Source of the DNA: Acaryochloris marina S15 | GTDB taxonomy: Bacteria > Cyanobacteriota > Cyanobacteriia > Thermosynechococcales > Thermosynechococcaceae | Assembly: GCF_018336915.1 (NCBI RefSeq) | Contig: NZ_CP064926.1 | Coordinates: forward strand, 210,001-242,000 | Length of the DNA stretch: 32,000 nt | Direction: 5' to 3' | Part shown: positions 1-28,750 of the stretch, piece after piece | Position numbering within the stretch: the first letter of the stretch is position 1 | Layout of the letters: each line of letters starts with the position of its first letter | Notes under the pieces: model-generated | What the model saw: the letters and a program-made list of their open reading frames with translations, nothing else | Told to the model about the DNA's origin: nothing | The model's database searches: none | Made by a program: the position numbers and the translations under genes

Positions 1-1306
1 ACGGCTGAAACTGAGGTTGTTGCAGCACTTCACGCACTCGACGACCTCGCTCTAAAGATTGCTGAGTGGATTCTTCTAAACGGGTCCCAAACCGAGCAAA
101 AGACTCCAATTCTTCAAATTGCGTGTAGGACAGTCGTAGATCCCCTGCAACGGTTCGGTAAGCAGGAAGCTGGGCTTTGCCCCCGACGCGGGAAACCGAT
201 TTGCCCACATCAACAGCAGGAAATATTCCCTTTTGGAACAGATCAGGGGTGAGATAGATTTGCCCATCTGTAATCGAGACTAAATTGGTGGGGATATAGG
301 CCGATAGATTTTGAGCTTCCGTCTCCACAATGGGCAAAGCTGTTAGAGAGCCTCCCCCTAACTCAGGCCGCAGACACGTCGACCGCTCCAGCAGCCGAGC
401 ATGAATATAAAAAATATCACCTGGAAATGCTTCCCGTCCTGGCGGGCGGCGCAATAGCAGCGATAGCTCACGATAGGCACGGGCATGTTGAATCAGATCG
501 TCATAAACAATCAACACATCTTGCCCTTGCTCCATAAAGTACTCTGCCATCGTGGTCGCAGCATAGGGGGTGATATATTGCAGGCCAGGTGAGGCTTCCC
601 CCCCTGCTACCACGACAATGCAGTAGTCCATCGCCCCCCGATTGCGAAGCTCAGCGATCAGCTTGGCCACAGCAGAACTGCGCTGACCAATGGCGCAATA
701 CACACAAATCACACCCTGATCTTTTTGGTTGAGGATAGTATCGATAGCAATCGCTGTTTTTCCCGTTTGGCGATCGCCCACAATTAGTTCTCGCTGTCCC
801 CGACCAATGGGGATAAGGGAATCAATCGCCTTAATGCCTGTCTGAAGAGGCACGGTTACAGGAGCCCGGTCCATGATGGCAGGGGCCTCCCGTTCAACGG
901 GGCGTCGTTCACTTTCAGTCACTAATCCGCGTTGATCCAACGGGCGACCTGTTGCATCAACGACTCGGCCAAGCAACCCCTCTCCTACAGGGACATCTAG
1001 AACCCGGCCTGTTCGCTGGACTTCACACCCTGCCCTCAGAGAATGTCCATCATCCAGCAAAATCAAACCCACCTCATCCGGATCTAAATTAAAGGCCAGC
1101 CCCATCCGATCGCCGGGAAATCTGACTAACTCCTCAGATTGCACCTGTAAAAGACCAGTCGCTCGGGCAATACCATGGCCTAAATAAGTTACAGTTCCGA
1201 TTTCTTGGCTCTGCAACTCGAATGGATACTGGCCTTCCACCTGATCAAATGCAGCAAAAATTTGATGCAGTACTGGCTTCAAAATGTCGAGTTTTGGGGC
1301 CTCCAT
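1..1306 (-). CDS. atpA: N-type ATPase alpha subunit (partial, C-terminus beyond window start)
   Basis: Manual minus-strand translation from the ATG at 1304-1306 gives [12 protein letters not shown]... and stays open to base 1. That is why it is missing from the ORF track. Walker [12 protein letters not shown] and typical alpha blocks are present ([35 protein letters not shown]). It starts 3 nt after the atpF stop. Confidence 0.92.
770..777. repeat. HIP1 palindrome GCGATCGC
   Basis: Exact octamer read in the sequence. Confidence 0.95.
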
Positions 1307-1309
1307 GGT

Positions 1310-2101
1310 CTACCCCTGCTCAACTGATTCTTTTTCCATGCCATCCCATACCTGATTTAACTTCATCTCCAGCTGCTGAAGATATTGCTCTACCGTCCAA
1401 GCCAGCTTATATCCTGGAATCTTGAGTTCAATTCCACACATTAAGTCTGGAGCCGTCGTAAATTGGTACGCACTAGGGTCTACTCCACGGGCTTGCTTAA
1501 GGAGTACCTCAAGTATGCGATTTCTGCTTTCTTGAGGTATGGGAAATGTACTGGATATCATCAGTTTCTGTTCCCTGACGTTGGATAAAGCAACTCGTAA
1601 CACCGCTTGTTCTGAAGCGGGTAGATGATTAAGACGAGTCAGAAAAGCTTCAATGATTTGCTGCTCTAAATCAGCATTCGCCAAATCTTGAAGGAGATAC
1701 CGAACGGTGGTCGTTAACTGCTGTCCTGCCAACTTCTGTAGAGTCCCTAGAAATACTTGCCGCTCATGTTTGACTGCCTCTTTCCATTGAGCTTGTGTAC
1801 TATCGACTTCGTCCCGAATTTGTTGCAACAACTGATGTCGATGCTCTTCTGCTGCTGCTTGCGCTTGGGTCAAAAACGAGGCTTGTCGATGTTCTAAAGA
1901 TTGCTGCATCTGACGCCAACGCTCAGCTTCTTGCTGAGCAACTTCTTGCTGATGAGCAGCTTCCTTTAACTGCTGAGCAATCAGCCGTTCCCGCTTTTTC
2001 ATTACTTGAGTGATCGGAGCATAGAGGAACCGTCTCAGTAAGGCCACTAGAATCAGAAAATTAATGATTTGGGCCACCACGGTGAGTGGATCAATCAACA
2101 T
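1310..2101 (-). CDS. atpF: N-type ATPase b subunit, long form with delta-like C-terminal extension
   Basis: One N-terminal TM helix (LIDPLTVVAQIINFLILVALL) is followed by a long charged coiled coil and about 100 extra C-terminal residues. The preferred start is M16 of the track ORF (ATG at 2101), 2 nt after the atpE stop and preceded by GGAGGA. There is no separate delta gene in the operon. Confidence 0.8.
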   Translation of the reverse strand: MLIDPLTVVAQIINFLILVALLRRFLYAPITQVMKKRERLIAQQLKEAAHQQEVAQQEAERWRQMQQSLEHRQASFLTQAQAAAEEHRHQLLQQIRDEVDSTQAQWKEAVKHERQVFLGTLQKLAGQQLTTTVRYLLQDLANADLEQQIIEAFLTRLNHLPASEQAVLRVALSNVREQKLMISSTFPIPQESRNRILEVLLKQARGVDPSAYQFTTAPDLMCGIELKIPGYKLAWTVEQYLQQLEMKLNQVWDGMEKESVEQG

Positions 2102-2103
2102 GG

Positions 2104-2391
2104 CTATCCTCCATTTGTGCTGGCCTGCTCCACAACATAGGTCCAAAATGGATTGGCAAAAATCAGAATTAATGTAATCACAAAGCAGTAAATGGCCGTT
2201 GATTCTACCAATGCCATTCCCACAAAAAGCACTCTGGTGATGGTATTGGCTTCGTCGGGTTGCTGCGCCAGAGCACTTAATGCTTGGGATAAGGCTCGAC
2301 CTTCCCCCAGCGCTGGGCCTATGGAGCCTATGGCAATGGTGAGTCCAGAGATCACAATCGAAGCCATGCCTACAAGGGCAATATTATCCAT
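2104..2391 (-). CDS. atpE: N-type ATPase c subunit (rotor ring proteolipid)
   Basis: 95 aa helical hairpin: GSIGPALGEGRA...AQQPDEA...MALVESTAIYCFVITLILIFANP. It is collinear with the Ilyobacter tartaricus c subunit. The start is taken at M20 of the track ORF (ATG 2391, preceded by GAGG). Confidence 0.9.
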   Translation of the reverse strand: MDNIALVGMASIVISGLTIAIGSIGPALGEGRALSQALSALAQQPDEANTITRVLFVGMALVESTAIYCFVITLILIFANPFWTYVVEQASTNGG

Positions 2392-3088
2392 GGAAGACCT
2401 CACTGTCTGTTTGAGGGTTGTGTTGATCCACTTGACTCGCCGCTGCAATGAAAACCATGGCTAAAATGGCGAAAATATAGGCTTGAATCATGCCTGTTAA
2501 GAGCCCCAAGACCTGCATCATGACTGGGAAGAGTAAAGGAGCTACCGATAGTAGGATGCCAACGATCATTGTTCCACTCATGACATTGCCAAATAGGCGA
2601 ACAGCTAGGGCCACAATTCTGGAGAAATCCCCAATGATATTGAACGGCAGCATAATGGGGTTAGGCTGCAAGTACTGCTGTAGGTAACCCCGCACTCCCT
2701 TCTTCCGAACGCCATAGAGGGGGACCGCGAAAAAGACACAGAGGGCAAGAGCCGTTGTGGTGGATAAAGACCCCGTCGGTGGTTGGTAACCGGGGATAAC
2801 ACTCAGCAGATTCGATAGGGCGATAAAGATAAACAAGGTGCCTATAAACGGTAAGTATGGGCCTGCAGGTTGGTCAATGATTTCCTGAATCTGATCTCTA
2901 ATGCCCAACACAATTACCTCCAACAAGTTTTGTCCCCGCGAGATCTGAGTCGAGGCAGAGAGGTGTCGGGTCACTAACCATGAGCCAACCACCAGCACCT
3001 CCATGACTAGCCAGGTGAAGATCAGTGTCGCGTTGAGAGAGAACATCCCCCATTGCCAAAAAATGGTTTGATCTGGCGTTAGATGCAT
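2384..3088 (-). CDS. atpB: N-type ATPase a subunit
   Basis: Polytopic membrane protein with the conserved stator arginine block LAVRLFGNVMSG. The start is taken at M30 of the track ORF (MHLTPDQTIFWQWG). Its position between atpR and atpE matches the N-ATPase gene order. Confidence 0.85.
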   Translation of the reverse strand: MHLTPDQTIFWQWGMFSLNATLIFTWLVMEVLVVGSWLVTRHLSASTQISRGQNLLEVIVLGIRDQIQEIIDQPAGPYLPFIGTLFIFIALSNLLSVIPGYQPPTGSLSTTTALALCVFFAVPLYGVRKKGVRGYLQQYLQPNPIMLPFNIIGDFSRIVALAVRLFGNVMSGTMIVGILLSVAPLLFPVMMQVLGLLTGMIQAYIFAILAMVFIAAASQVDQHNPQTDSEVFHG

Positions 3089-3182
3089 TACATTTGTGCT
3101 CCATTCCAAGTGATAACAACAATGAATTTTGAGTTTTGTAATACTGAGAGCACAGTATTTGAGCCTTTTAGCCAAAATTCTT

Positions 3183-3194
3183 TTCTATATAGAA
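3183..3194. promoter_or_regulatory. Perfect 12-bp palindrome TTCTATATAGAA in the 136-bp AT-rich spacer between atpR and atpB
   Basis: Read directly from the sequence. It lies in the only long non-coding gap inside the ATPase operon, next to a T8 run. A 7-bp stem hairpin is at 3140-3159 (AATACTG/CAGTATT). Confidence 0.3.
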
Positions 3195-3224
3195 TTTTTT
3201 TTAATAAAGTCTTTGATTCAGAAC

Positions 3225-3560
3225 TTATAAATCACAATTCACAACTTCTCTCCGCCTTTTCTTTATCTTCTGGGGTTGGGGAATAATGCTGCTAATCAAA
3301 ACATTTCGAGCCCAAAGAAATCCCAGAAATGTAAGGAGTAGAGGTCCTAGTAGATGATCGCTCACTCCCTTCTGAAGGATGAGGTGAAACACACCTAGAA
3401 CTGCCCCAAGACGGAGTATGAAACTACTCCACATCAGCAGGATGGGTTGAGTGGTTCGGTTAAACCGGAGAATCGTGATCCATAATCCACCGAAGTAAAG
3501 GAGTCCTAGTCCACTCCCCAAAATTAAGGAGGTGAATAGGGCGAGGGAATAACTATTCAT
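3225..3560 (-). CDS. atpR: N-ATPase accessory membrane protein AtpR
   Basis: 111 aa with three hydrophobic segments and an YFGGLWITI motif that resembles the AtpR family FGGLWWT block. It sits directly upstream of atpB, as in atpDCQRBEFAG operons. Confidence 0.65.
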   Translation of the reverse strand: MNSYSLALFTSLILGSGLGLLYFGGLWITILRFNRTTQPILLMWSSFILRLGAVLGVFHLILQKGVSDHLLGPLLLTFLGFLWARNVLISSIIPQPQKIKKRRREVVNCDL

Positions 3561-4786
3561 GCTTCAGCCTCTTGTAGTTGGGGCCATTGCTTGAGTAATG
3601 GATATAGCAGCATCGGAGCGATGATACAGGTTGAGATCGCAACCAGCGTCATGCCAGTAAAAATCTGGGAAGAGACAGCCCAATCCCCCAATTCACGACC
3701 TCGCTGAAGAATCACCATGGTAATTTCAGCTCGAGGCATCATACTAATCCCTAGTAAAGTGGAACTGGAAACATCTCTTTGGCTCAAGAGCATCAAACCC
3801 CCAATACCGATGAGTTTGCCAAGCAAGGCTGCACTCAGGAGCAATAAACTCAAGCCTAGGGTGGTTGCTAGAGTTGAAACTTGAATCTGTAGGCCAATAT
3901 GGATAAAAAAGAACGGAACAAAAAATTCGTAGAGAGTTCCGAAAGATGCATCAATTTTGACAGCGTGGGGATCACGGCTAAATGCCAGTCCTGCAAAGAA
4001 GGCCCCAACGGCAACTGAGAAACCTAAAAGCCCTGCTACAGCAGCAATAACGAAGCCTGTTCCTACAACCATCAACATCGGATCGGGGGCCGGTTCTATT
4101 CGCTCAAAAAATTGAGTTAAGGGCTGTTCAATATAGCGAAAAAAGATCAAGCAGAAGGTGCTAAAAATCATCACCTTTAAGCAAAAAGGGCCAATGATTG
4201 TTTCCAAAAGCGGCAGAAACTTAATTGCGGTTCCTTGCTGCCAGGAAGGAGCAAGTGAAAATAATAAAGACATCAGGATAATGGCCGCAATATCATCCAT
4301 TTCCGCAATATCTAGTAGCAGCTCTCCATTCTTGGAATTAAGTGCTTGGGAATCTTGCCAAACGCTAATTGAAATCCCCACACTGGTTGCCACCAAGGCA
4401 ATGCCAATAAATAGGCTGGCAACAAGAGATAAATTTAAGAAGAAATAGGCAGTGATAAACCCTATTGAACCACTACAGATCACATCACCGATGAGGAGCA
4501 AACAAGCTTGAGGTAACTGACGCAATAATCCAGTGAAATTGCATTCTAATCCCACGCGGAACAGTAGAGAAATAATGCCTAGCTCAGCTAAAAAACTAAA
4601 GATCTCCAACACCACCTCGGAGGCTAGAAAACCACGAACATCAAGAAGTTGTAAAATAAAACCAAGCAATAAATATCCCACTAAGGGAGGGATGCCCAAC
4701 CGTTCGGCCCCTGCTTTAAAGAGGATAGCTAAAACAATTGTTGTCCCTACGAGTAAAACTAAATACAGGAGGATCGTTTCACTCAT
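3557..4786 (-). CDS. CPA2-family monovalent cation/proton antiporter (Na_H_exchanger fold) embedded in the ATPase operon
   Basis: 409 aa and highly hydrophobic, with roughly 11-13 predicted TM helices. It carries the unwound-helix motif VATSVGISI and the paired aspartates AEMDDIAAI typical of electrogenic CPA2/NapA-like antiporters. The ATG at 4786 overlaps the atpQ stop by 8 nt. Its TGA overlaps the atpR ATG (ATGA at 3557-3560). Confidence 0.8.
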   Translation of the reverse strand: MSETILLYLVLLVGTTIVLAILFKAGAERLGIPPLVGYLLLGFILQLLDVRGFLASEVVLEIFSFLAELGIISLLFRVGLECNFTGLLRQLPQACLLLIGDVICSGSIGFITAYFFLNLSLVASLFIGIALVATSVGISISVWQDSQALNSKNGELLLDIAEMDDIAAIILMSLLFSLAPSWQQGTAIKFLPLLETIIGPFCLKVMIFSTFCLIFFRYIEQPLTQFFERIEPAPDPMLMVVGTGFVIAAVAGLLGFSVAVGAFFAGLAFSRDPHAVKIDASFGTLYEFFVPFFFIHIGLQIQVSTLATTLGLSLLLLSAALLGKLIGIGGLMLLSQRDVSSSTLLGISMMPRAEITMVILQRGRELGDWAVSSQIFTGMTLVAISTCIIAPMLLYPLLKQWPQLQEAEA

Positions 4787-5093
4787 GATGACTTTCCTTT
4801 TTGATCCAATACCAGGCATTGAGGCAACCTAAAATCACCCCCACAACCAGCATGGTTAAGGTCCAAGAATAGCGGCTAGGGACATGATTATCTAGCCAAA
4901 CCCCGATGGCAATCCCCAATAGCGTTGGAATTGCCACTGACCACCCCACTAACCCGAACAGTCCTAGACCAAACCAGACGCTCTTTTTCTGGTGTCGAGC
5001 CTTTAGTTTGCGGTTAACTTTATCCTTAACTTGATGTTGAAAACCATGCTTGTCCGCTTGGCCTAAGTCCTTCGGTAGTGGTGAATTCTCCAT
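4779..5093 (-). CDS. atpQ: N-ATPase accessory membrane protein AtpQ (ATPase_gene1-like)
   Basis: 104 aa with a basic N-terminus followed by two TM helices (VWFGLGLFGLVGWSVAIPTLLGIAIGVWLD ... WTLTMLVVGVILGCLNAWYW). It sits directly after atpC. Confidence 0.65.
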   Translation of the reverse strand: MENSPLPKDLGQADKHGFQHQVKDKVNRKLKARHQKKSVWFGLGLFGLVGWSVAIPTLLGIAIGVWLDNHVPSRYSWTLTMLVVGVILGCLNAWYWIKKESHHE

Positions 5094-5107
5094 CCATAAC
5101 TCCGTTT

Positions 5108-6944
<1,837 letters not shown>

Positions 6945-7103: not shown

Positions 7104-9620
7104 TTAGAGGGTAGCTTTCATCTGGGCTTCAACTTGGGCAATGGCCAACCGAGTTTTGAGTACCGTATCTGGGTTGAGGCTGATGGAATCAATCCCTTCC
7201 TCCACCAAGAACTGGGCAAACTCAGGATAGTCACTGGGGGCCTGACCACAGATACCAATTTTTCGACCTTTGGCCTTGGCAACGGTAATCACTTGCCGCA
7301 CCAAATTCTTCACGGCCGTATTGCGCTCATCAAAGATATGGGCAACTAAGGCAGAGTCCCGATCTAGTCCTAGAGTGAGCTGGGTTAAGTCATTAGAGCC
7401 AATGGAGAAACCATCAAATACCTCTGCAAATTCCTCTGCCAGCACCACATTGCTAGGCACTTCGCACATCACATAAACCTGCAGACCATTCTCACCCCGT
7501 TTTAGACCATGTTGAGCCATTTCATCAAGAACCTGTTGGCCTTCTTCGGGGGTGCGACAGAAGGGAATCATGGGAATGAGATTCTGCAACCCCATATCAT
7601 CGCGAACCCGTTTCAGGGCATGACATTCCAGAGCGTAGGCTTGGCGATAGTTGGGGTCGTAATAGCGAGAGGCCCCCCGCCAACCAATCATCGGGTTTTC
7701 TTCCGTCGGTTCAAACTGGCGACCCCCGATTAAATTGGCATATTCATTACTCTTAAAGTCGGACATGCGAACGATCACGGGATTAGGATAGAAAGCCGCC
7801 GCAATCATACCCACCCCTTGGGCCAGCCGATCGACAAAGAAATCAGGTTTGTAATCATAATCAGCGGTCAGTTGAGCAATCGCCAGCTTGGCCTCCATAT
7901 CCGTTAACTCGTCATACTTCAGAAGTGCCAATGGATGAGTCTTAATTTGGTTGGCGATAATAAACTCCAATCGCGCTAGTCCTACCCCATCGCAGGGAAT
8001 GGCCGCCAGCCCAAAGGCTTCATCAGGATTACCCACATTCATCAGAATTTGGGTTTGGGTGGGGGGTAGTTCATCTAAGGCGGTTTCTTCCACCACAAAG
8101 GGCAGCAGTCCGGGATAGACCTGCCCCGTTTCACCTTCGGCACAGGAAATGGTGATGTTCTGCCCCGTTTGCAAAACTTCGGTGGCGTTGCCACAACCGA
8201 CAATGGCGGGAATACCCATCTCCCGCGCGATAATAGCTGCATGGCAGGTGCGTCCCCCTTGATTGGTGACAATGGCACTGGCCCTTTTCATAATCGGCTC
8301 CCAGTCGGGGTCTGTGCGGTTGGTTACCAAGACTTCACCAGCCTGGAATTCCTTAATCCCTTGGACCGAGGCAATCACCCGAGCTGCTCCCTGGCCAATG
8401 CGATCACCGACGGCTCGGCCCTGAATAAACGGTTTGGGTAAGGTATCCACTGTCATCCGATAGGAGGAGAGTCGATTTGCCACCTTCTGGGATTGAACGG
8501 TTTCTGGGCGGGCTTGGACAATAAATAGCTCCCCCGTTTGGCCGTCCTTGGCCCATTCGATATCCATGGGTGTGTCCACACCCCGAACCTGGGAATAGTG
8601 GTCTTCAATAATGCAAGCCCACTGGGCTAAGGTGAGGATTTCCTCATCACTGACGGAAAACTTAGCTCGGTCAGCCTCTGGAACGGCAATATTTTTGGTA
8701 AGTTTGCTGCCTCCCAGGTCGTAGATCATTTTGATCTCTTTACTGCCCAGATGTTTGTTCAAAATGGGACGAAAGCCGTCGCGCAAAGTCGGTTTAAAGA
8801 CCAGAAATTCGTCAGGATTGACGGCACCTTGGACGACATTTTCCCCTAGACCATAGGCAGCGGTGACTAAGGCTGCATTCTTAAACCCAGTTTCCGTATC
8901 GATGGAAAACATTACTCCAGAAGAGGCCAGATCCGAGCGCACCATTTTTTGCACTCCCACGGATAGAGCCACCTCGAAATGGTCAAAGCCTTTGAGGGTA
9001 CGATAGGAAATCGCCCGATCCGTGAAGATGGAGGCAAAGCATTTGTGGCAGGATTCCAAAACCTGCTTGACGCCATGGACATTTAGGTAGGTTTCCTGTT
9101 GTCCAGCAAAGCTCGCATCGGGCAGGTCTTCTGCCGTTGCACTGGAGCGCACGGCGACGTCGACGTTGTAGTGATAGGCTTGCAGTCGTTCTTGAACTTT
9201 GGAGTCTTGTCCCTCTGGAGCGGTACTGCCCACACCATATTGTTCACACAGTTGACAATAGGCGGTGGAAATCGCTAATTCTAGATCCTTGGGGAAAGGA
9301 GTGTGGAGAATCAGCGATCGTGCTTGTCGTCCTCGCTGACGTAGATTATCGACATCCTCAACATCTAGATCGGCAAAAATCTGTCGTAGTTGGACCTCAA
9401 TCCCTGCCTGTTGAATAAAATACCGATAGGCATAGGCTGTGGTGGCAAAGCCATTGGGCACATTCACGCCCAGGGGAACCAAATGCTGGATCATTTCACC
9501 TAGGGAAGCATTTTTGCCGCCAACCAGGGGAATATCCGCAATGCCCACCTCATCAAAACCTAAGATCAATACTTGCTTACGGCTGGTTTCCGAGAAAAGG
9601 CGGGGTTCTGTGTGAATCAT
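7104..9620 (-). CDS. ppsA: Phosphoenolpyruvate synthase (pyruvate, water dikinase)
   Basis: 838 aa and collinear with E. coli PpsA. Matching blocks include VGGKNASLGEMI, VRSSATAEDLPDASFAGQQETYLNV, the phosphohistidine swivel GGRTCHAAIIAREMGIPAIVG, and the C-terminal PEP-utilising barrel SIGSNDLTQ. Confidence 0.95.
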   Translation of the reverse strand: MIHTEPRLFSETSRKQVLILGFDEVGIADIPLVGGKNASLGEMIQHLVPLGVNVPNGFATTAYAYRYFIQQAGIEVQLRQIFADLDVEDVDNLRQRGRQARSLILHTPFPKDLELAISTAYCQLCEQYGVGSTAPEGQDSKVQERLQAYHYNVDVAVRSSATAEDLPDASFAGQQETYLNVHGVKQVLESCHKCFASIFTDRAISYRTLKGFDHFEVALSVGVQKMVRSDLASSGVMFSIDTETGFKNAALVTAAYGLGENVVQGAVNPDEFLVFKPTLRDGFRPILNKHLGSKEIKMIYDLGGSKLTKNIAVPEADRAKFSVSDEEILTLAQWACIIEDHYSQVRGVDTPMDIEWAKDGQTGELFIVQARPETVQSQKVANRLSSYRMTVDTLPKPFIQGRAVGDRIGQGAARVIASVQGIKEFQAGEVLVTNRTDPDWEPIMKRASAIVTNQGGRTCHAAIIAREMGIPAIVGCGNATEVLQTGQNITISCAEGETGQVYPGLLPFVVEETALDELPPTQTQILMNVGNPDEAFGLAAIPCDGVGLARLEFIIANQIKTHPLALLKYDELTDMEAKLAIAQLTADYDYKPDFFVDRLAQGVGMIAAAFYPNPVIVRMSDFKSNEYANLIGGRQFEPTEENPMIGWRGASRYYDPNYRQAYALECHALKRVRDDMGLQNLIPMIPFCRTPEEGQQVLDEMAQHGLKRGENGLQVYVMCEVPSNVVLAEEFAEVFDGFSIGSNDLTQLTLGLDRDSALVAHIFDERNTAVKNLVRQVITVAKAKGRKIGICGQAPSDYPEFAQFLVEEGIDSISLNPDTVLKTRLAIAQVEAQMKATL

Positions 9621-9799: not shown

Positions 9800-10918
9800 T
9801 CAATCTTGCTCTTGGATGGCCAAGGTAAAGTAAACGTCGGTGCCAATACCTAACTTCGATTCAATCCAAATCTTTCCTTGATGACGTTCAACGACTTTTT
9901 TACAGGTTGCAAGACCGATTCCTGTACCAGGATAGTTCTGGGGCATGAGTTGTTGAAAAGCTTGAAAAATATGGTCAAATTGCGATGACTCGATGCCAAT
10001 ACCGTTGTCATGCACTCCAAAACACCATTCTTGATCCTGACGTTCTACCGAAATCTTCAATTGACTCAACTCGTCCGGACGGTGAAATTTGATGGCATTA
10101 CTAATCAAGTTCTGAAATAGTTGGGCCAATTGCACTTTATCGGCAAGAACCGTCGGCAGGTGATCGGCAGTGATGGTGGCTCTTTGCTTCGAAATCTCAA
10201 CCTCTAAATCTGCCAGTACCTGATTTAAGACCATATTGCAGTCTGTTGATTCCAAGGTCATTGCCTTGCTGCCTACTTGACTGTAGGTCAGTAAATCCTC
10301 AATCAGTTCGTCCATGTGGGATGCTACGTCGACAATCCGACTCACTAACTTCATCCCTTCTTCACCAAGAGTTTGTTGGCATTTGAATCCCAACAGTTTT
10401 GCAAAGCCCAAAACACCCTGCAATGGCTGCCTTAAATCATGGGAGACGATGGATGTGAACTGTTCTAATGCTTGGTTAGAGCGCAATAATTCTTCATTTT
10501 GAGCAATTAACTTTTTGCGGAGACGAGTAATGGTCAGTTGATTTGCCACCCGTACTAAAACTTCCTCAGTTTGGAAGGGTTTCGTAATATAATCAACCCC
10601 TCCGACAGTAAAAGCTTTGATCTTGTCGGACGTATCGTCTAGGGCACTGAGGAAGATCACGGGGATATCGTAGGTTTTTACGTCAGTCTTCAACTGTTGA
10701 CAGACCTCATAACCATCCATTTCTGGCATTTTGATATCCAGCAATACAAGATCTGGCGGATCTGTCTGGGCGACTGACAGCGCCATCGTTCCATTCGTGA
10801 CTGCCCGAACTTCATACCCCTGATTCGTTAATGTATTGGATAACAAGCGAAGATTTTCTGGGGTATCATCTACAATCAAAATATCGCCTTTATACTCATC
10901 TTCAAGTGGGTTACTCAT
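9800..10918 (-). CDS. Hybrid response-regulator/histidine kinase (REC-HisKA-HATPase_c)
   Basis: N-terminal receiver domain (DLVLLDIKMPEMDGYEV, K at ITKPF), H-box SIVSHDLRQPL, N-box LISNAIKF, and G-boxes HDNGIGI and GTGIGLA. Confidence 0.9.
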   Translation of the reverse strand: MSNPLEDEYKGDILIVDDTPENLRLLSNTLTNQGYEVRAVTNGTMALSVAQTDPPDLVLLDIKMPEMDGYEVCQQLKTDVKTYDIPVIFLSALDDTSDKIKAFTVGGVDYITKPFQTEEVLVRVANQLTITRLRKKLIAQNEELLRSNQALEQFTSIVSHDLRQPLQGVLGFAKLLGFKCQQTLGEEGMKLVSRIVDVASHMDELIEDLLTYSQVGSKAMTLESTDCNMVLNQVLADLEVEISKQRATITADHLPTVLADKVQLAQLFQNLISNAIKFHRPDELSQLKISVERQDQEWCFGVHDNGIGIESSQFDHIFQAFQQLMPQNYPGTGIGLATCKKVVERHQGKIWIESKLGIGTDVYFTLAIQEQD

Positions 10919-10964: not shown

Positions 10965-13169
10965 TCAGGGTTGGGTCAGAGTTAGAATTTTTTCGTAATT
11001 AAAATTACTGACCAAATCAGTGAGTCCTTCGGCGAGAATGCTATGTTCTTCTGGAATCTCTTGAATGAGGGTTTCAATTCGTGTGCTGCGCGCACTCATT
11101 GCCGCTTGATGTAGTTCAGCAAGCCATTCTGTCGGCATCACGGATAGTTGGGATGCGGTCACCTCCATTGCGGGTTGCGGTGAAAGGGGTTGAGGCTTTT
11201 CAAAGATATAGCGAACCCCCAGATACTCGGTCATCTTCTCGAAGATGGTGTCTTCAAGAAAAGGTTTTCGAACAAAATCATCACATCCGGTGGCGAGGAT
11301 TTGGGCTCTCTCTTCGTCAAGGGCACTGGCGGTGAGCGCAATGATTACAGTTGCTTGCCCTTTAATATGGGCTTTAATATATTGCGTTGCCTCATAACCG
11401 TCCATCACTGGCATTCGCATGTCCATCCAGATCAGATGAGGTCGCCAACGGTCACATTCTTCTATGGCCACTTTGCCATTTTCGGCTTCTCGGACTTCAA
11501 ATCCCAAGGGTTGCAAAAGATTGACCATCAGCTTGCGATTTTCCATCCGATCTTCAACAATCAAGATCCGATAAGCTGGCTGGTCTGGAGCAAGTCCGAT
11601 AACGCGTTGAGCCATCGGCTGAGGTTTATGATCTACCTCATTGCCCAAAGTCACTTGCAGATAAAACTGAAATGTCGTTCCCTGCCCAACAACACTCTTA
11701 ACGGTAAGGTCTCCTCCCATTAACTTTACAAAGCGGTGGCTAATGGGTAAGCCGAGTCCAGTCCCTTGCTGAGACTTTCGACCCGTTTCTGTTTGGGTGA
11801 AGGCGGCAAACAACTGTTTGATTTCACTGGGATCAATTCCAGGACCTGTGTCTTCGATTTCAAAAAATAAACATAATTGAGGAGCTTCGCTTGCCGCTTG
11901 AGCCTGAATCGGCCCAGCGTGAACCCTCAAATTAATGTGGCCTGATTCTGTGAATTTGATGGCGTTACCCAGCAAATTAATCAAGACTTGACGGAGTTTT
12001 CCTTCATCTGCGCGAATAAATTGGGGAGTATCAGGCGCGCGATCGCAAGTGAGCTGCAATCCCTTCGTTTTTGCTCGTAAATCGAGCATTTGTATCAACG
12101 TCTCTAGAAGATTATAGAGATCGAAGTTTGTTTTATGAAGGGTGACTCGACCGGCTTCGATTTTGGACATTTCGAGAATGTCATTAATCAATTCCAGTAA
12201 GTGCTCACCACTGCGGTTAATGATGTCGAGATGCTCTTTTTGAGCAGATGTGAGTGCAGGATCTCGATGCATCAATTGGGAAAACCCCAGAATCGCATTG
12301 AGAGGAGTCCGAAGTTCATGGCTCATGTTAGCCAAGAAACCGCTCTTAGCCTGATTGGCCACTTCAGCAGCTTCTTTGGCCTGCTGAAGCTCAGTTTCTG
12401 CTCTTTTGCGATCGCTACTATCCCGTAAAATTGCAGTGAAGACTTTTTCGTCTCCTAACTGTAACTGCGAAATCGAAGCTTCCGCCGGAAATTCTGTACC
12501 GTCCTTGCGTCGACCAAAAACCTCGCTGCGATCCCCCATCATTCTGGCGGTAGATCGAGAGGCACCAAATTTTTGAATATGCTTGTGATGAATAGATATT
12601 GCCCGTTTGGGTAACAGGAGATCCAGCGATTGACCTAGAACTTCATCAGCCTGATAACCAAAGACTTTCTCAGCGCCTTTATTAAACTGGTTGATCCGTT
12701 GGCTTGCATCCACGGAGATAATGGGGTCGTTGGCAATATCGAGAATCCCTAATAACATGGCTTCCGAACCGTCCCCTACAGCCTGGTTCAATGGCTCACT
12801 GAAGTGATTGTCTTGACGGACCCCAATTAATAAGGCTGCTGCAATCGTTCCCAAAAGGTTCAGGCTGAGTGCTCCCTGGAGGGTAATAGCATCGGAGATA
12901 ACTAGGATTTTATAGAGGGTGTAGGCAGACAGGACGCCGGAACTGAATATGCCTCCCCAAAGTCCAAGCCAATGGGCAGACAGGACTGCGCCGAGCATCA
13001 GTAAAGGATATAGGGTGGATGGCTCTGCACCGAAGGGGGGTAACAACTCCAACCCAAAAGCAAGAAATAGTATAGCAACGCCACCTGACCAGAAGGGGAA
13101 TAGGCGTTGACGTTGGATAGAGTTATCGAACGTGTCGGCTTGATGCTGACATGAGCCTGGGGAAGTCAT
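10965..13169 (-). CDS. Membrane hybrid sensor histidine kinase (TM region-PAS-HisKA-HATPase_c-REC-unassigned C-terminal domain)
   Basis: About 4 N-terminal TM helices, then a PAS-like segment (NDPIISVDASQRINQFNKGAEKVFGY). H-box MSHELRTPLN, N-box LLGNAIKFT, and G-boxes DTGPGI and GTGLGL. The receiver carries LIWMDMRMPVMDGYE. An 85-aa tail follows. Confidence 0.9.
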   Translation of the reverse strand: MTSPGSCQHQADTFDNSIQRQRLFPFWSGGVAILFLAFGLELLPPFGAEPSTLYPLLMLGAVLSAHWLGLWGGIFSSGVLSAYTLYKILVISDAITLQGALSLNLLGTIAAALLIGVRQDNHFSEPLNQAVGDGSEAMLLGILDIANDPIISVDASQRINQFNKGAEKVFGYQADEVLGQSLDLLLPKRAISIHHKHIQKFGASRSTARMMGDRSEVFGRRKDGTEFPAEASISQLQLGDEKVFTAILRDSSDRKRAETELQQAKEAAEVANQAKSGFLANMSHELRTPLNAILGFSQLMHRDPALTSAQKEHLDIINRSGEHLLELINDILEMSKIEAGRVTLHKTNFDLYNLLETLIQMLDLRAKTKGLQLTCDRAPDTPQFIRADEGKLRQVLINLLGNAIKFTESGHINLRVHAGPIQAQAASEAPQLCLFFEIEDTGPGIDPSEIKQLFAAFTQTETGRKSQQGTGLGLPISHRFVKLMGGDLTVKSVVGQGTTFQFYLQVTLGNEVDHKPQPMAQRVIGLAPDQPAYRILIVEDRMENRKLMVNLLQPLGFEVREAENGKVAIEECDRWRPHLIWMDMRMPVMDGYEATQYIKAHIKGQATVIIALTASALDEERAQILATGCDDFVRKPFLEDTIFEKMTEYLGVRYIFEKPQPLSPQPAMEVTASQLSVMPTEWLAELHQAAMSARSTRIETLIQEIPEEHSILAEGLTDLVSNFNYEKILTLTQP
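12039..12046. repeat. HIP1 palindrome GCGATCGC
   Basis: Exact octamer read in the sequence. Confidence 0.95.
12408..12415. repeat. HIP1 palindrome GCGATCGC
   Basis: Exact octamer read in the sequence. Confidence 0.95.
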
Positions 13170-13387
13170 AACTCTAATGCAGGATCAATAGAGAGAACAT
13201 GAACCATCCACAGTGGCCTTAATCCAGTCATGGGACCTTTTGACGGTGAGTCCCCCATCTAACTTGCCTGACTTCGATAGACAAAAACCACTTGTGTTTA
13301 ATCATAGGACCAATACTAAAAACGAATGGCTTCCGAGAGAGGAATATTCGATTGTTTTAATACTCTGTGTTAACTCGGCTCAATCAC

Positions 13388-20117: not shown

Positions 20118-20256
20118 GGGCTAAAACCATCGTCACGACAAGACTTATTTCCGTAATCTCCCCGGTTCGGCACGTAAAAACTCTTTGGCACATTAGTTTG
20201 AACTTAGTTTCCAAGCTTGAGAAACTTGTGAAGTAGCAAGGACGCTCACAACTTTC

Positions 20257-20466
20257 TCAATGAATACCCAGTTCAATCACTGTGCCCACAATTTGATGTC
20301 CCAAAATAAGTGGTAGTTTTGGGTCTGGCAGCTCGCCATCAACAATATGTAAATCGGTTCGACAAACCTCACAAACATGAACCTGCAATAGAAGTTGGTG
20401 AGAATTGGGGTTGGGAATGGGGCGTTCTATACACTGGAGAAGTTGACCAGGGGCATCTAGTTGCAT
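20257..20466 (-). pseudogene. Zn-dependent alcohol dehydrogenase (MDR family), N-terminal remnant only
   Basis: The sequence MQLDAPGQLL...VHVCEVCRTDLHIVDGELP...PLILGHQIVGTVIELG matches the GroES-like ADH N-domain. It stops after about 70 codons with no continuation in any frame. Its first codons and RBS lie on the far side of the IS4 element (21960-21985). Confidence 0.8.
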
Positions 20467-21950
20467 CAATGTCACTGACTTAAGAAAGTAGAAAAGGGCT
20501 GTAAGTCTTGATAGATATAGAATCAAGACTTGCAATCCATCAATAATCTGCCTTCTACTATGTCTGAGTCAGCCGAAATTCTCAAGCACCAGTTTTCCCA
20601 AAGCCTGGGATTGCCCTGGACGGATATTCTTCCTGCTTCAATGCTGACCGACATCCTAGCAGAGGAATCAATCTCTTATCGCAACCGTGTGTATACGCCC
20701 ATCGTTACGTTGTGGGCCATGCTCTACCAAGCATTATCTGCAGACAAAAGCTTGCGCAACACGGTCAAATGCATCACCACCTGGCTCACTGCCGCAGGAA
20801 TCCAACCCCCATCATCAGATACAGGAGCCTACAGTAAAGCCCGAGGAAGATTACCTGAGTCCCTGCTGCAACGGTTAATTCCCGAAACCGCTAACCACCT
20901 AGAGCAAAGCATTCCCCAAGAACACCACTGGTGTGATCGAACAGTGAAAGTCTATGACGGCACGACAGTGCTGATGGCTGATAGTGCGGCGAACCAAGGG
21001 GAGTATCCTCAACATGGCAATCAGGCTCCTAGCTGTGGATTCCCCATTGCCCGTTTAGTGGTGTTTTTTTGCTTAATCACAGGGGCAGTGGTCTCAGCCT
21101 GCATTGCCCCCTGGAGCATGAGTGAAATCGTCATCAGTCAGCTGCTTTATGAGGATCTGGAGGTTGATGATGTGGCCATAGCAGATCAAGCCTATGGCAG
21201 CTATGTTGATCTAGCCCTGATTCAACAACAAGGAGCCGATGGGGTTTTACGTAAACATCATGCCCGTCATACAGACTTCCGTAAAGGACGTAAGAACGGG
21301 ATAGGAGACCACCAAGTTCAATGGCAAAAGCCCACACGGTGTCCCGCCCACATGAGTGCAACGGAGTTTGCAGAGATTCCCAAAACATTGACAGTCAGGG
21401 AGGTATCGCTACGTCTATCGCGTCGAGGCTTTCGAGACCAGTTCATTATCGTCGTCACGACTTTACTGGATGCTCAGCGCTATAGTGCTAAACAATTGAC
21501 TCGCTTGTACGGATGGCGATGGCAGGCGGCTGAAGTCAATTTGAGACACCTCAAAACCACCTTAAAGATGGAAATGCTCACGGCAAAGACACCTGAAATG
21601 GTGCGCAAGGATATTTGGTCTCATTTGCTAGGCTACAACTTATTGAGAAGTCTCATGGAACAGGCTGCCCCATGGGCAGAATATGACCGCTCTCGACTCT
21701 CTTTACAAGGGGCTCGACAACACTTTAATCAGATGCTGGTTTTGTTAGCAACGGCGACACAAGCGATACGTCAACGGTTGTATGCTCATCTGCTTGAAAA
21801 TATTGCTACTGACCTTCTGCCGGTTCGACCCCATCGGCTCGAACCCAGGGTCGTTAAACGAAGACCTAAGCCCTTCCCCAGAATGCGACAACCGCGCTCT
21901 GTCCTCAAAGCCAATCTGGCTGCTTGATTAAGCTTATCTCAGTGCCATTG
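20467..21950 (+). mobile_element. IS4-family insertion sequence (1484 bp)
   Basis: Terminal inverted repeats are CAATGTCACTGACTTAAG (20467-20484) and CAATGGCACTGAGATAAG (complement of 21933-21950), matching at 15/18. They are flanked by a perfect 12-bp direct repeat ATCTAGTTGCAT at 20455-20466 and 21951-21962. Confidence 0.9.
20560..21927 (+). CDS. IS4-family DDE transposase
   Basis: 455 aa from the first ATG (the track ORF begins at a TTG at 20530). The C-terminal signature YGWRWQAAEVNLRHLK is the Y-R-E-K block of IS4-type transposases. Confidence 0.88.
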   Translation: MSESAEILKHQFSQSLGLPWTDILPASMLTDILAEESISYRNRVYTPIVTLWAMLYQALSADKSLRNTVKCITTWLTAAGIQPPSSDTGAYSKARGRLPESLLQRLIPETANHLEQSIPQEHHWCDRTVKVYDGTTVLMADSAANQGEYPQHGNQAPSCGFPIARLVVFFCLITGAVVSACIAPWSMSEIVISQLLYEDLEVDDVAIADQAYGSYVDLALIQQQGADGVLRKHHARHTDFRKGRKNGIGDHQVQWQKPTRCPAHMSATEFAEIPKTLTVREVSLRLSRRGFRDQFIIVVTTLLDAQRYSAKQLTRLYGWRWQAAEVNLRHLKTTLKMEMLTAKTPEMVRKDIWSHLLGYNLLRSLMEQAAPWAEYDRSRLSLQGARQHFNQMLVLLATATQAIRQRLYAHLLENIATDLLPVRPHRLEPRVVKRRPKPFPRMRQPRSVLKANLAA

Positions 21951-22164
21951 ATCTAGTTGCATTGCTCGCATTGCTGATTCCTCCAAGGCTAGATGTAGAT
22001 CGCTCAATACTTTTGGGGCAGGGGATCTCCTCACAAATTCATCAAGTTTATTTCTTAAAGTCAAAGTAGAAGGAGATGACTCCCCAACCATTTCAAACAT
22101 AACGGTGCTTTATAAAACTTCTGTGGGGAGCATCCCAAACCAGTTGTGACAGCGAGGAGGCGTA

Positions 22165-22653
22165 ATGATGTCTATTGTCCTTCGTGATCCGTTCCGTAGT
22201 TTTGAACGCATGTATCCATTAGGTTGGGAACCTTTTCAAGAACTGGAAAGCTGGCAACGAGAGATGGATCGGATGTTTGGACGGTTAATGCCAATTTCTA
22301 AAGGGGATGGAGAAAAGAGTCTTACCTTTATGCCATCTGCGGAAATGGACGAAACCGATCAAGAAATCCATCTCAAATTTGAACTTCCTGGTCTTGATGC
22401 TAAGGATCTTGACATTGAAGTCACCAAAGATGCCGTTTTCATCCGAGGAGAACGCAAGACTGAAATTGAAGCAGAGTCAGAAGGGACCGTTCGATCTGAA
22501 TTCCACTATGGAAAATTTGAACGCGTTATCCCCATGCCCAGCCCCATTAAGACCGATAACGTTCAAGCAGAATTCAACAATGGGGTCTTGAGTCTCACCT
22601 TAGCGAAGTCTGAGGAGGATATGAAAAAGTCCGTTAAAGTAGCAATTAGCTAG
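22165..22653 (+). CDS. hspA: Small heat-shock protein, Hsp20/alpha-crystallin family
   Basis: 162 aa with alpha-crystallin domain blocks (DETDQEIHLKFELPGLDAKDLDIEV, FERVIPMP, AEFNNGVLSLTLAK). GAGGAGG lies 5 nt upstream of the ATG. Confidence 0.9.
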   Translation: MMSIVLRDPFRSFERMYPLGWEPFQELESWQREMDRMFGRLMPISKGDGEKSLTFMPSAEMDETDQEIHLKFELPGLDAKDLDIEVTKDAVFIRGERKTEIEAESEGTVRSEFHYGKFERVIPMPSPIKTDNVQAEFNNGVLSLTLAKSEEDMKKSVKVAIS

Positions 22654-24199: not shown

Positions 24200-25432
24200 T
24201 AGATCTACAGATAAAGATCCGTGATTAGCTAGGCAGCTTGTGTACCCAAGGTTTTGCAATATTTGCCCATTAAGACAGTAATTTCATTGGGAGTCTGACT
24301 AAAGTACAGTAGCCCCTCATCGACCTGCTGAACTAAGTCATCAAATTGCTTGAAGAACCGTAGGTGTGTGCTGCGTTTTTTGAGTTTCTTCCACAAGAAT
24401 TCAATTGGGTTGAAGTCAGGAGAATATGTGGGTAATTGGAAAGGAGTAAGGCGAGCGGATTGCTGGTCAAAGAACTGCTTAGTTGCTTTACTGGTGTGAT
24501 ATCTAGCCCCGTCCTGAATGAGAATAATATGCTTGTGAGTCTGCTGGAGTACTTGAGTTAGAAAAGCAGTATACCCTTCAGAATTGAAGCGTCCCGTCTG
24601 ACCTTGATAGAAGAACTGACCAGAATGATAATCAATTAATCCAAACACCTTGTAAGCCTTCCGTTTACCACTGGTGGGCAATGTTGGCTGGTCTCCACGA
24701 AGACTCCAGGTGTAGCTTAACGACCCCCACTGCGCAAAACTGGCCTCATCCCCAAATAAAATTAGGGCATCTTTGGCTGCTGATAAACGCAAAATCTCAG
24801 GCCATTTGTGTGTCATCCATTCTTGTCGCTTGGCTTCATTGAGATGAGCTGCAACAAACCGTGCTCTTTGAAATGAAAAGCCTAAGTTCCTCAGTAGAGT
24901 ACTCACATAATGGGGATGATAGGAAACATTGAAGCGTTTCGCAATCAGGTCTTGAACCATTAATGCACTCCAACAACCACACTCGTATCCAGCTTTGAGC
25001 GGACCTGCTTTAATCCATGACTTGAGCTGTTGTCGTTGCCGTGGAGTGAGTTTGCTGCGACGTCCTTGAGACGCTTTGTATCTAAAGCTAGCGATACCTC
25101 GTTTTAGAAATGCATGCAGATAATCCCTGATCGTTTGTTCGCCTAGTGCCAATGTTTCAGCTACCTGTGCCACTGAACCACCTTGACCAAGCTGCAATAA
25201 AGCACTAATACGTTTGACCAGACGTAAATTCTGACTCCCGTATGCCTGGCGCAGTTTAGCTTCAATCTTTTGCGTGTTGATTGGGTAAAGCGCAGTTTGA
25301 ATTGTGCGAGCATACTGGATGACCTCTGATAATCTTGAAATCCTTGCCAGAGCTAAGAGTATCAGGAGCTAGTTACTATATTTAATGAAGATGTAGTGTC
25401 GCTAAAACCACGGATGCTTTTCTGAAGATCTA
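24200..25432 (-). mobile_element. Second, unrelated IS630-family insertion sequence (1233 bp)
   Basis: Inverted ends of about 30 bp: TAGATCTACAGATAAAGATCCGTGATTAGC versus the complement TAGATCTTCAGAAAAGCATCCGTGGTTTTAGC. TA flanks both sides at 24198-24199 and 25433-25434. Confidence 0.88.
24229..25197 (-). CDS. IS630-family DDE transposase
   Basis: HTH region (SVAQVAETLALGEQTIRDY) and DDE_3 blocks (ILFGDEASF, LIQDGARYH, YSPDFNPIEFLWKKLK). The track start is a TTG. The frame stays open upstream to 25368 and encodes homologous-looking sequence (EAKLRQAYGSQNLRLVKRISALL) but contains no ATG. Confidence 0.85.
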   Translation of the reverse strand: MQLGQGGSVAQVAETLALGEQTIRDYLHAFLKRGIASFRYKASQGRRSKLTPRQRQQLKSWIKAGPLKAGYECGCWSALMVQDLIAKRFNVSYHPHYVSTLLRNLGFSFQRARFVAAHLNEAKRQEWMTHKWPEILRLSAAKDALILFGDEASFAQWGSLSYTWSLRGDQPTLPTSGKRKAYKVFGLIDYHSGQFFYQGQTGRFNSEGYTAFLTQVLQQTHKHIILIQDGARYHTSKATKQFFDQQSARLTPFQLPTYSPDFNPIEFLWKKLKKRSTHLRFFKQFDDLVQQVDEGLLYFSQTPNEITVLMGKYCKTLGTQAA

Positions 25433-26284
25433 TATCGAGCTTGGTTTCACGAACATCCTCCTCAAGCTGCGGTGGCAATCATCCACGGCCTCGGTAGCCA
25501 TGGCAGTACTTTTATAAATGCGGTCAATACCTTTGTTCCTCAGGATTATGCGGTCTATGTCTTAGATCTACGGGGGCATGGTCGCTCTTCTGGAGAGCGA
25601 GGCTATATCAACCACTGGTCAGAGTTTAGAGCCGATTTTCACATGTTTCTGCAGTTAGTTGAGTACCAACAGCCTAACGTTCCTCTCTTTGCCTGGGGAC
25701 ATAGTCTAGGCGGTGTAATTGTTCTGGATTACGTCCTACATTATTCCCATCAGCTGTTGGGCATCATTGTATCCGGTCTACCCATGGGAGCTGTTGGTGT
25801 TTTACCCTGGAAGTTAGCAATCGCTAGTCTTCTATCACAGCTATGGCCTCGATTTTCTCTCAATACGGGCATCGATCTAGCCAGTAATTCTAGCGATCCA
25901 GCCATCCTTCTAGACTATTCTCAGGATCCCCTGCAGCACACTCAAGGAACAGCTCGGTTAGCCACTGAGTTTCTCCGCACTCAAGCCGAATTACAAGCCC
26001 AGGCAACAAATATCCGTCTACCGCTGTTGATGCTCCATGGCAGCAACGATCAGACCGCTTCTCTCACCGAGAGCATAGCCTTTTTTCAAAAGGTCGGTAG
26101 CAAGACTAAACAACATCTAGAATATCCAGGAGCCTTTCACGACTTACACGCTGATCTGGATGCCCAAACAGTACTCGCTGATATAAGCCAATGGCTTCGT
26201 CAGCAGCTCACAACCTTTCAGAAGACCAAGGAACGACAGCTTAGTATAGTCAGCCTTTTGTGGTCTCTTCCAAAGAGCGAATGA
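25433..26284 (+). pseudogene. 3' part of IS-disrupted alpha/beta hydrolase (lysophospholipase / monoacylglycerol-lipase-like)
   Basis: The frame is open from the TA duplication (YRAWFHEHPPQAAVAIIHGLGSHG). It carries the nucleophile elbow GHSLGG, the acid LHGSNDQ and the histidine GAFHDL. Confidence 0.85.
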
Positions 26285-26390
26285 ATTCACGAATGATATC
26301 GGTCTTGGTCCGATGTGTTTTTTTCGCATAGCGGTCCAATATTTTTAGTTCATACTCTGGAACTCTTATGCAAAGCTGATTCTGGGCCAT
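26250..26390 (-). CDS. Ribbon-helix-helix (CopG/Arc/MetJ-like) DNA-binding protein, 46 aa
   Basis: Not on the ORF track because it is under 60 aa. Manual translation gives MAQNQLCIRVPEYELKILDRYAKKTHRTKTDIIREFIRSLEETTKG. The pattern is a beta-strand followed by two helices, with the typical R-[ST]-K-[ST]-x-[IL]IRE block. It overlaps the hydrolase 3' end convergently by 35 nt. Confidence 0.6.
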   Translation of the reverse strand: MAQNQLCIRVPEYELKILDRYAKKTHRTKTDIIREFIRSLEETTKG

Positions 26391-26392
26391 AT

Positions 26393-28713: not shown

Positions 28714-28750
28714 GGCTTCATTCCTGCTGAATTTATTGAGGTTTGTTGTT

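Follow-up and report, generated by a model that had tools for sequence, protein, structure and literature searches.

What is the gene for a secondary cation exchanger doing in the middle of an operon for a rotary ATPase? The question is raised by a 32,000-nucleotide stretch of Acaryochloris marina S15 (NZ_CP064926.1, positions 210,001 to 242,000; hereafter, the window), which matches plasmid pMB02 from Acaryochloris sp. 'Moss Beach' (NZ_CP071719.1) at 100% identity and carries on its minus strand an N-type ATPase (N-ATPase) operon with an additional 409-codon membrane-protein gene (3557..4786, minus strand) lodged exactly between atpQ and atpR. The answer proposed here is that this gene, which we assign to the NapA-type antiporters, is a long-established and translationally coupled cistron of a Na+-translocating N-ATPase operon, and that pump and antiporter together may perform an ATP-driven exchange of Na+ out for H+ in, a reading which, taken as a whole, we judge to be evenly poised between right and wrong. 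That the arrangement is conserved, has a fixed junction, extends to bacteria other than cyanobacteria and is confined to operons of the Na+ type makes a reasonable case for a functional module.

As derived from open reading frames (ORFs) and Pfam/NCBIfam matches, the minus-strand order is atpD-atpC-atpQ-antiporter-atpR-atpB-atpE-atpF-atpA, with atpG located beyond the window in the plasmid record, giving a full order of atpD-C-Q-antiporter-R-B-E-F-A-G. The same genes are listed by RefSeq for both Moss Beach and A. marina, where the extra one is named cation:proton antiporter, and plasmid pREB4 of A. marina MBIC11017 (88.8% DNA identity across the N-ATPase operon) has it in the same place. The initial annotation of the window had already placed this gene between atpQ and atpR, and its coordinates were confirmed throughout; it had also contrasted the locus with a published order, atpD-C-Q-R-B-E-F-A-G, in which atpR directly follows atpQ. 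That order is indeed found here save for the one extra gene, but its source (Dibrova et al., 2010) does not make the adjacency of atpQ and atpR universal: an insertion in Acaryochloris is listed there among the gene-order exceptions (the sole non-cyanobacterial one being Persephonella marina), although its main text gives the inserted gene no name and no interpretation. Full-text literature searches yielded no discussion of the operon antiporter beyond one sentence in that paper, and later Acaryochloris genome and transcriptome papers discuss the plasmid Na+-ATPase without mention of an antiporter. The insertion as such has thus been known since 2010 and is annotated in RefSeq. Our locus shares with the operons described at that time the gene order, the presence of atpQ and atpR, a Na+-type c subunit, the lack of a delta gene and a plasmid location, whereas the present account adds that the inserted gene is NapA-like and widely distributed, has a coupling junction that is conserved, is also found outside cyanobacteria and is confined to operons with a Na+-type c subunit.

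The antiporter gene shares codons with both of its neighbors. Upstream, atpQ (4779..5093, minus strand) encodes an AtpZ/AtpI-like small membrane protein specific to N-ATPase operons (PF09527, 57.3 bits, E 1.6e-15; TIGR02230, 140.9 bits vs. a cutoff of 46.7), and downstream, atpR (3225..3560, minus strand) encodes another N-ATPase-specific small membrane protein (PF12966, 76.3 bits vs. a cutoff of 26; TIGR03165, 48.6 bits, under the cutoff of 55.5). At the atpQ/antiporter junction (4779..4799, minus strand), a Shine-Dalgarno (SD)-like element, AAGGAAAG (4799-4792), is contained in the K-E-S codons of atpQ and is followed by the antiporter ATG (4786-4784) and the atpQ TGA (4781-4779), the two genes overlapping by 8 nt. 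At the antiporter/atpR junction (3557..3560, minus strand), the atpR ATG (3560-3558) and the antiporter TGA (3559-3557) form a 4-nt ATGA overlap. Both overlaps, as claimed by the initial annotation, can be read directly from the sequence, and the translational coupling that it had suggested on their basis gained substantially from comparison with other loci (designated by L numbers). Among 30 atpQ-antiporter loci, all selected for an antiporter directly after atpQ, 24 loci from several phyla have an ATG or GTG that precedes the end of the atpQ stop by exactly 8 nt; these include a Syntrophobacteria metagenome-assembled genome (MAG) and contigs of 60% GC in which the antiporter itself is just 48% identical. 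In the 27 junctions listed, an SD-like GGAG or GGAA (the latter in Acaryochloris and L021) precedes the -8 start, and the overall pattern can be written as ...A/G-GGAGAG-(T/C)C-nnn-RTG-AnTGA, with the SD-like element inside the K/R-E-S codons of the AtpQ C-terminus; cyanobacteria share this motif with the high-GC contigs L108, L125 and L060. At the other junction, a -4 overlap with atpR is observed in A. marina, L004, L005, L009, L108 and L125, a -1 overlap in L023 and L026, and short gaps or insertions elsewhere. In L016 and L017, about 260 nt separate atpQ from the antiporter. No terminator-like site was found at either junction in a promoter/terminator scan, which had fewer matches than shuffled sequence and carries no information. 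Because the coding overlaps are so deeply conserved, co-production of the antiporter and the N-ATPase is, on these sequence grounds, very likely.

Another in-frame ATG, at 4819-4817, precedes the antiporter start by 33 nt (position -41 with respect to the atpQ stop); this strain has it, as do about nine further loci, but A. marina does not. Probably this ATG merely results from the conserved sequence coding for the C-terminus of AtpQ, and it was rejected as a start since, unlike the conserved -8 start, it is missing from A. marina and many others; the start of the antiporter is, therefore, placed at 4786.

What kind of transporter is encoded was approached through its family, key residues and predicted fold. 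The protein matches PF00999 with 163.8 bits (E 7e-48) over residues 18-399, and its best solved relative is Thermus thermophilus NapA (E 2e-24, aligned residues 12-405), compared with E 5e-9 for KefC. The motifs VATSVG (residues 132-137) and AEMDDIAAI (residues 161-169), singled out by the initial annotation as hallmarks of the CPA2 superfamily, withstood this comparison: the stretch ALVATSVGI is identical in NapA, the ATS aligns with NapA T126/S127, and D164/D165 align with D156/D157. In addition, K324 aligns with K305, the lysine of transmembrane helix (TM) 10, and P351-R352-A-E354 with the NapA PRGE motif (PR-x-E). In the window, T134/S135 are encoded at 4387-4382, D164/D165 at 4297-4292, K324 at 3817-3815 and R352 at 3733-3731 (minus strand), and the ATS, DD, Lys and PR-x-E residues are invariant across 33 homologues from the studied loci. 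An AlphaFold model built on 55 homologues (predicted local distance difference test 83, predicted TM-score 0.84) has helix breaks at residues 133-136 (ATS, TM4) and 349-352 (PR, TM11), and its top Foldseek match is NapA 5BZ2 with TM-scores of 0.80/0.85, followed by NHA2 and KefC (about 0.73 for the latter). The CPA2 subfamily model TIGR00932 was matched with 121.3 bits, below the 238.3-bit cutoff and, hence, under the NCBI naming threshold, and the protein is filed here as a NapA-like CPA2 exchanger because of its fold and site residues rather than this model. NapA-type exchangers with the TM10 lysine are electrogenic and move two H+ per Na+. The inserted gene is, by its alignments and structural model, a NapA-type CPA2 exchanger that has both the aspartate pair and the TM10 lysine by which electrogenic members are typified; its substrates, stoichiometry and direction, and its electrical coupling to the ATPase, we infer from what is known of the two families. 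The likeness to Thermus NapA (PDB 4BWZ, 5BZ2, 5BZ3), an electrogenic CPA2 Na+/H+ antiporter that also has no regulatory domain, has its limits, as the two proteins share only about 25% identity in the structural alignment, and NapA is encoded by a stand-alone gene, whereas the present protein, of predicted activity, is encoded inside an ATPase operon.

The same comparisons bear on the possibility that the protein exchanges K+ instead, as a Kef- or GerN-like K+/H+ or Na+/H+-K+ exchanger that would balance K+ while the ATPase removes Na+. Automatic names such as 'Kef-type K+ transport system' and 'GerN' point in that direction, as does the similarity in transporter fold to the Escherichia coli glutathione-gated K+ efflux proteins KefC/KefB, which belong to the same superfamily. 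However, the sequence match to KefC is much weaker than that to NapA, the KefB/KefC equivalog models score about 45 bits vs. cutoffs above 750, no KTN/RCK domain is found (the protein stops at residue 409, after the last transmembrane helix), and the paired position is Asp-Asp here, as in NapA, vs. Gln-Asp in KefC. Kef-type K+ efflux was rejected on the missing KTN domain, the far better match to NapA and the low equivalog scores, and a K+ exchanger of any such kind appears improbable. A precedent for a K+ transporter in the operon of a Na+-ATPase does exist: it is the ntp operon of Enterococcus hirae, where a rotary Na+-pumping ATPase is co-transcribed with the secondary cation transporter NtpJ/KtrB, a separate protein linked to the pump via an ion circuit (PMC12604602). 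By analogy, this is the closest conceptual precedent for our locus, although the ATPase there is of the V-type and not the N-type, the transporter mediates Ktr K+ uptake and is not a CPA2 protein, and ntpJ is the last cistron at the 3' end instead of a mid-operon gene with overlapping codons.

The ion moved by the partner ATPase is indicated by its c subunit, encoded by atpE (2104..2391, minus strand; TIGR03322, 147.8 bits vs. a cutoff of 130.9), which is 100% identical to that of A. marina. Its residues E30 in helix 1 (2304-2302) and E63-S64-T65-A-I-Y68 in helix 2 (2205-2188) align with E32/E65/S66/T67/Y70 of the Na+-specific Fusobacterium nucleatum ring 3ZK1, in a GEG...ESTxxY pattern. By the criteria of Dibrova et al. 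(2010), the enzyme is, as predicted from these ligands, a Na+-translocating N-ATPase, and the same conclusion was drawn for Acaryochloris by Miller et al. (2022). The ESTxxY form is found in 22/22 antiporter-bearing operons with a visible c subunit vs. 26/45 canonical operons with a complete one; the remaining canonical operons have ES[I/L/M]xxY, and all ES[ILM]xxY c subunits found come from antiporter-free operons. The association between Na+ motif and antiporter gives a Fisher p of 1.2e-4, which overstates the evidence as the loci are related, while its direction is clear. These data bear directly on the model, suggested by the initial annotation, in which the N-ATPase exports H+ and the resulting proton motive force drives Na+/H+ exchange. 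Such pumps are known, since the Burkholderia pseudomallei N-ATPase is H+-coupled (PMC5376962) and H+ specificity has been predicted for about half of the N-ATPases (PMC11738941), but a proton-pumping partner is contradicted by the full set of Na+ ligands present here and in all antiporter-bearing operons, and we regard this model as very improbable. N-ATPases are thought to act as ATP-driven pumps (Dibrova et al., 2010; PMC5376962; PMC11738941), and the related enzyme of Aphanothece halophytica is reported to be a Na+ pump that confers salt tolerance (PMC8949462; PMC5376962) and to move Na+ by a uniport mechanism (PMC2928168).

The breadth of the arrangement was assessed by two independent scans. 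A genome scan with the antiporter as a query (one genome per species, 40 loci) revealed an atpQ homologue immediately upstream of the antiporter homologue in 20/40 loci, usually with atpC/atpD before and atpR-atpB-atpE-atpF after; among the hosts are Acaryochloris, Leptolyngbyaceae, Spirulina, Prochloraceae, Xenococcus sp. PCC 7305, Waterburya, Pleurocapsa and other Pleurocapsales. A metagenome scan seeded with an AtpQ alignment provided 80 loci, which comprise 63 canonical ones (atpQ, then atpR), 7 with the antiporter after atpQ, 7 too short to classify and 3 unclear. The arrangement is recurrent but, among atpQ loci, limited to a minority (7 of the 70 classifiable metagenomic ones). Some antiporter-bearing contigs are far from Acaryochloris (GC 60-63%, antiporter identity 32-49%, a-subunit identity about 60%), and homologue look-ups revealed the full D-C-Q-antiporter-R-B-E-F order in the Syntrophobacteria-named MAG GCA_046538315.1 and in GCA_029573755.1. 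A tblastn search of plasmids with AtpR yielded only two Acaryochloris records, AtpR being too divergent, and the a subunit was used as a replacement query.

A recent neutral insertion without functional consequence might be expected in an operon that is plasmid-borne and mobile, and the initial annotation had reasoned that absence of the antiporter from close relatives would indicate just that. Instead, the gene is present in A. marina, in other Acaryochloris MAGs and in many distant operons; its product is 83-91% identical in other Acaryochloris and 45-65% identical in other orders and phyla, with the same junction; and the ratio of nonsynonymous to synonymous substitution rates (dN/dS) between the window and A. 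marina is 0.10 (0.07-0.20 for the atp genes). The arrangement is old and under purifying selection, and a recent neutral insertion, contradicted by both conservation and dN/dS, was rejected as having a negligible chance of being correct.

The history of the insertion was approached through phylogeny. In a bootstrapped neighbor-joining (NJ) tree of the antiporter, all operon copies from cyanobacteria fall into a single clade (92%), within which free-standing copies are nested, the second copies of the Waterburya type, for example, joining the operon copy of Waterburya (100% bootstrap). Another clade (97%) unites the operon copies of L108, L126 and L095 with one free-standing Desulfobacteraceae copy, while the deep nodes have bootstrap values of 16-33%. 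In an a-subunit NJ tree, which carries no support values, antiporter-bearing operons occur in at least three places, all within the part with Na+-type c subunits, and L046, a canonical operon, branches inside the clade of the Pleurocapsales, which points to a loss of the antiporter in L046. A single origin of all operon-embedded antiporters, as opposed to several captures, is neither shown nor excluded by these trees. Among free-standing proteins, the 410-amino-acid NhaS4 is presumably the likeliest counterpart, a lead rather than a result. Synechocystis NhaS3/NhaS4 and Aphanothece ApNapA1-1/1-2 are NapA-type (CPA2) Na+/H+ antiporters of cyanobacteria that have been implicated in the tolerance of salt and of alkaline conditions (PMC9374696); they are likened to the present protein by description only.

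How might such an antiporter and a Na+ pump work together? In the mechanism that we propose, the N-ATPase and the antiporter would be separate proteins of the same membrane, made together from one transcript. Hydrolyzing ATP, the N-ATPase would expel Na+ as net positive charge and build up an inside-negative potential that would soon stall the pump. The antiporter would spend this potential by moving more Na+ out and two H+ back in, thereby discharging the potential and acidifying the cytoplasm, so that the back-pressure on the pump would be relieved and cytoplasmic alkalinization counteracted. The net result would be an ATP-powered, nearly electroneutral Na+-out/H+-in exchange, of potential benefit in saline, mildly alkaline seawater to a cell with a weak proton motive force at its plasma membrane. 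The alternative offered by the initial annotation, a valve that recycles the ion pumped by the ATPase, does not fit well, as the exchanger would have to run in reverse, which would be energetically disfavored for a 2H+:1Na+ exchanger at seawater pH. A more far-reaching version, in which antiporter-bearing operons would represent a distinct, multi-phylum subclass of Na+-N-ATPases with pump and antiporter in a fixed proportion set by translational coupling, as one ATP-driven, charge-balanced module and possibly with the antiporter contacting AtpQ or the membrane sector, is put forward tentatively and is, in our opinion, rather less than probable.

Several observations weigh against a joint Na+-out/H+-in exchange. 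First, operons without the antiporter are the majority (63/70 metagenomic loci); the pAQ7 operon of Picosynechococcus PCC 7002 and that of Polymorphobacter are canonical in this respect, and the nine-gene Halothece/Aphanothece operon is reported to contribute to salt tolerance without an antiporter (PMC9374696), from which it follows that the antiporter is not required for pump function. Second, free-standing paralogues are nested among the operon copies, and the protein can, thus, work alone. Third, the antiporter|atpR junction elsewhere also holds a P-type ATPase, TnpB, a PIN toxin and GmrSD/HEPN, and this site may simply tolerate insertions. Fourth, Na+ vs. K+ selectivity and electrogenicity cannot be read surely from sequence, and no transport, expression or genetic data for the antiporter were found in the literature for any organism. 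Finally, atpA appears frameshifted in this very strain.

The last point deserves a closer look. The atpA gene for the alpha subunit (1..1306, minus strand, cut by the left end of the window) differs from that of A. marina by two +1 frameshifts, near 885 and near 604. It is broken into three ORFs (as seen in L002); in the Moss Beach record one extra base is found in each of two homopolymers, a C5 and a G8 run, and the locus tag of the gene, HRE53_RS29580, is absent from the gene table. Elsewhere in the window, the public record annotates an AMP-binding protein as two adjacent coding sequences (CDSs) and lists no gene for two stretches of 2-2.5 kb (window ~24317-26360, 26360-28825 and 20139-22190). 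Since other genes of the window also look split or unannotated, long-read homopolymer errors are as likely an explanation of the atpA frameshifts as true decay; together, these features suggest several frameshifted genes or assembly indels in the plasmid. If the atpA frameshifts are real, the pump would be dead in the Moss Beach strain, with the antiporter still intact.

The main rival to a joint exchange is co-regulation only: a salt-stress gene would have landed in a permissive site of a mobile operon and would share its promoter, with no energetic interplay between the two products beyond the fact that both remove Na+. The accumulation of unrelated genes at the antiporter|atpR junction, the majority of operons lacking the antiporter (one of them reported in salt tolerance) and the free-standing copies all agree with this explanation, and E. 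hirae NtpJ has been described as functionally independent of its ATPase (PMC12604602). Mere cargo would, nevertheless, hardly account for the position of the antiporter directly after atpQ in 30/30 loci (by selection), 24 of which keep the -8 start, nor for the placement of other cargo, which in these loci is always found after the antiporter and never between atpQ and the antiporter, nor for the retention of the arrangement across phyla at 45-65% protein identity and its limitation to Na+-type operons. We consider the cargo explanation to be a serious one, albeit somewhat unlikely.

The additional cargo is of some interest by itself. In L016 (Waterburya agarophytonicola, 3386-6181) and L020 (8224-10980), a type IIA-like P-type cation ATPase of 918-931 amino acids is encoded between the antiporter and atpR, in the order atpD-C-Q-antiporter-P-ATPase-R-B-E-F; its closest solved relative is the Listeria Ca2+-ATPase LMCA1, with scores under the NCBIfam equivalog cutoffs, and it is probably the second gene of the Cyanothece 'two-gene insertion' reported in 2010. 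Mobile and defense genes after the antiporter include an IS605-type TnpB (L028, 3053-4204), a PIN toxin (L011, 8601-9056) and GmrSD with a HEPN protein (L020, 11100-12652). A membrane protein of 130-139 amino acids follows the antiporter in two Xenococcaceae operons (L028, 2527-2946; L017, 8312-8704), its match to DUF6163 being weak, at or under the cutoff. Between atpD and atpC of L008 there are ORFs spanning about 4.6 kb (1700-6300), and in at least four genomes (L006, L010, L012 and L017) the operon seems to end after the antiporter.

The constant association with atpQ could also mean that the antiporter is a physical partner, binding AtpQ or the membrane sector of the N-ATPase as a part of the complex or as an assembly or regulatory factor. 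Translational coupling of the kind observed here often serves stoichiometric co-assembly, the antiporter always adjoins atpQ, and in split operons it remains with the atpD-C-Q half. On the other hand, free-standing paralogues derive from operon copies (100% bootstrap), canonical operons exist without the antiporter, and all catalytic residues are retained, as would be expected of an autonomous transporter; direct physical partnership is, in our estimate, distinctly improbable.

The remaining operon genes were assigned as follows. The first gene, atpD (5493..6941, minus strand; RefSeq CDS HRE53_RS29540), encodes the N-ATPase beta subunit (TIGR03305 alt_F1F0_F1_bet, 795.7 bits vs. a cutoff of 752; PF00006) and is followed by atpC (5108..5503, minus strand) for the epsilon subunit (TIGR03166, 136 bits vs. 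100; NF004871, 174 bits vs. 135). Beyond atpR, the a subunit is encoded by atpB (2384..3088, minus strand; TIGR03306 altF1_A, 347.5 bits vs. 302), and a long b subunit of 263 amino acids by atpF (1310..2101, minus strand; NF011044, 362.7 bits vs. 339; TIGR03321, 215.8 bits, just under the cutoff of 224.7). Thus, beta, a, c and epsilon score above the curated 'alternate F1F0' cutoffs, while b is marginal on TIGR03321 and passes NF011044; AtpQ and AtpR are both present, and no delta gene (atpH) is found between atpF and atpA in the plasmid record. A. marina is reported to have a chromosomal F-type ATPase set besides the plasmid-borne N-type (PMC9324425).

Directly upstream of atpD and on the same strand lies ppsA (7104..9620, minus strand), encoding phosphoenolpyruvate synthase, which is given here as context, its membership in the operon not being shown. 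PpsA homologues (50-73% identical) adjoin N-ATPase operons in several unrelated contigs (L056, 742-3126; L126, 795-2180; L026, 6206-7150; L102), including the Syntrophobacteria MAG. Just upstream of ppsA, also on the minus strand, are two genes whose products may regulate the cluster: a response regulator that ends in a histidine-kinase-like region (9800-10918) and a hybrid sensor kinase of the PAS kind (10965-13190). The gene found immediately upstream of ppsA in A. marina is hypE, in place of these sensor/regulator genes.

Overall, the locus touches on a class of enzymes whose physiological role is still largely conjecture and on a protein, AtpQ, whose function is not established. At the practical level, N-ATPases are defined in the paper on the ProAD database by the two genes that separate epsilon from a (PMC11738941), and a detection rule of exactly two such genes could miss or misclassify antiporter-bearing operons; the operon is also a candidate cassette for salt-tolerance engineering. 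By tying an exchanger, through shared codons, into Na+-type operons in many marine cyanobacteria and in some bacteria resembling Desulfobacterota, nature has provided an experiment on the integration of ATP-driven Na+ extrusion with pH and membrane-potential homeostasis, which is most relevant to the cyanobacterial plasma membrane, whose energization is poorly understood. If pump and antiporter indeed operate as one module, this would offer the first functional handle on AtpQ and on the reason why N-ATPases exist beside F-ATPases.

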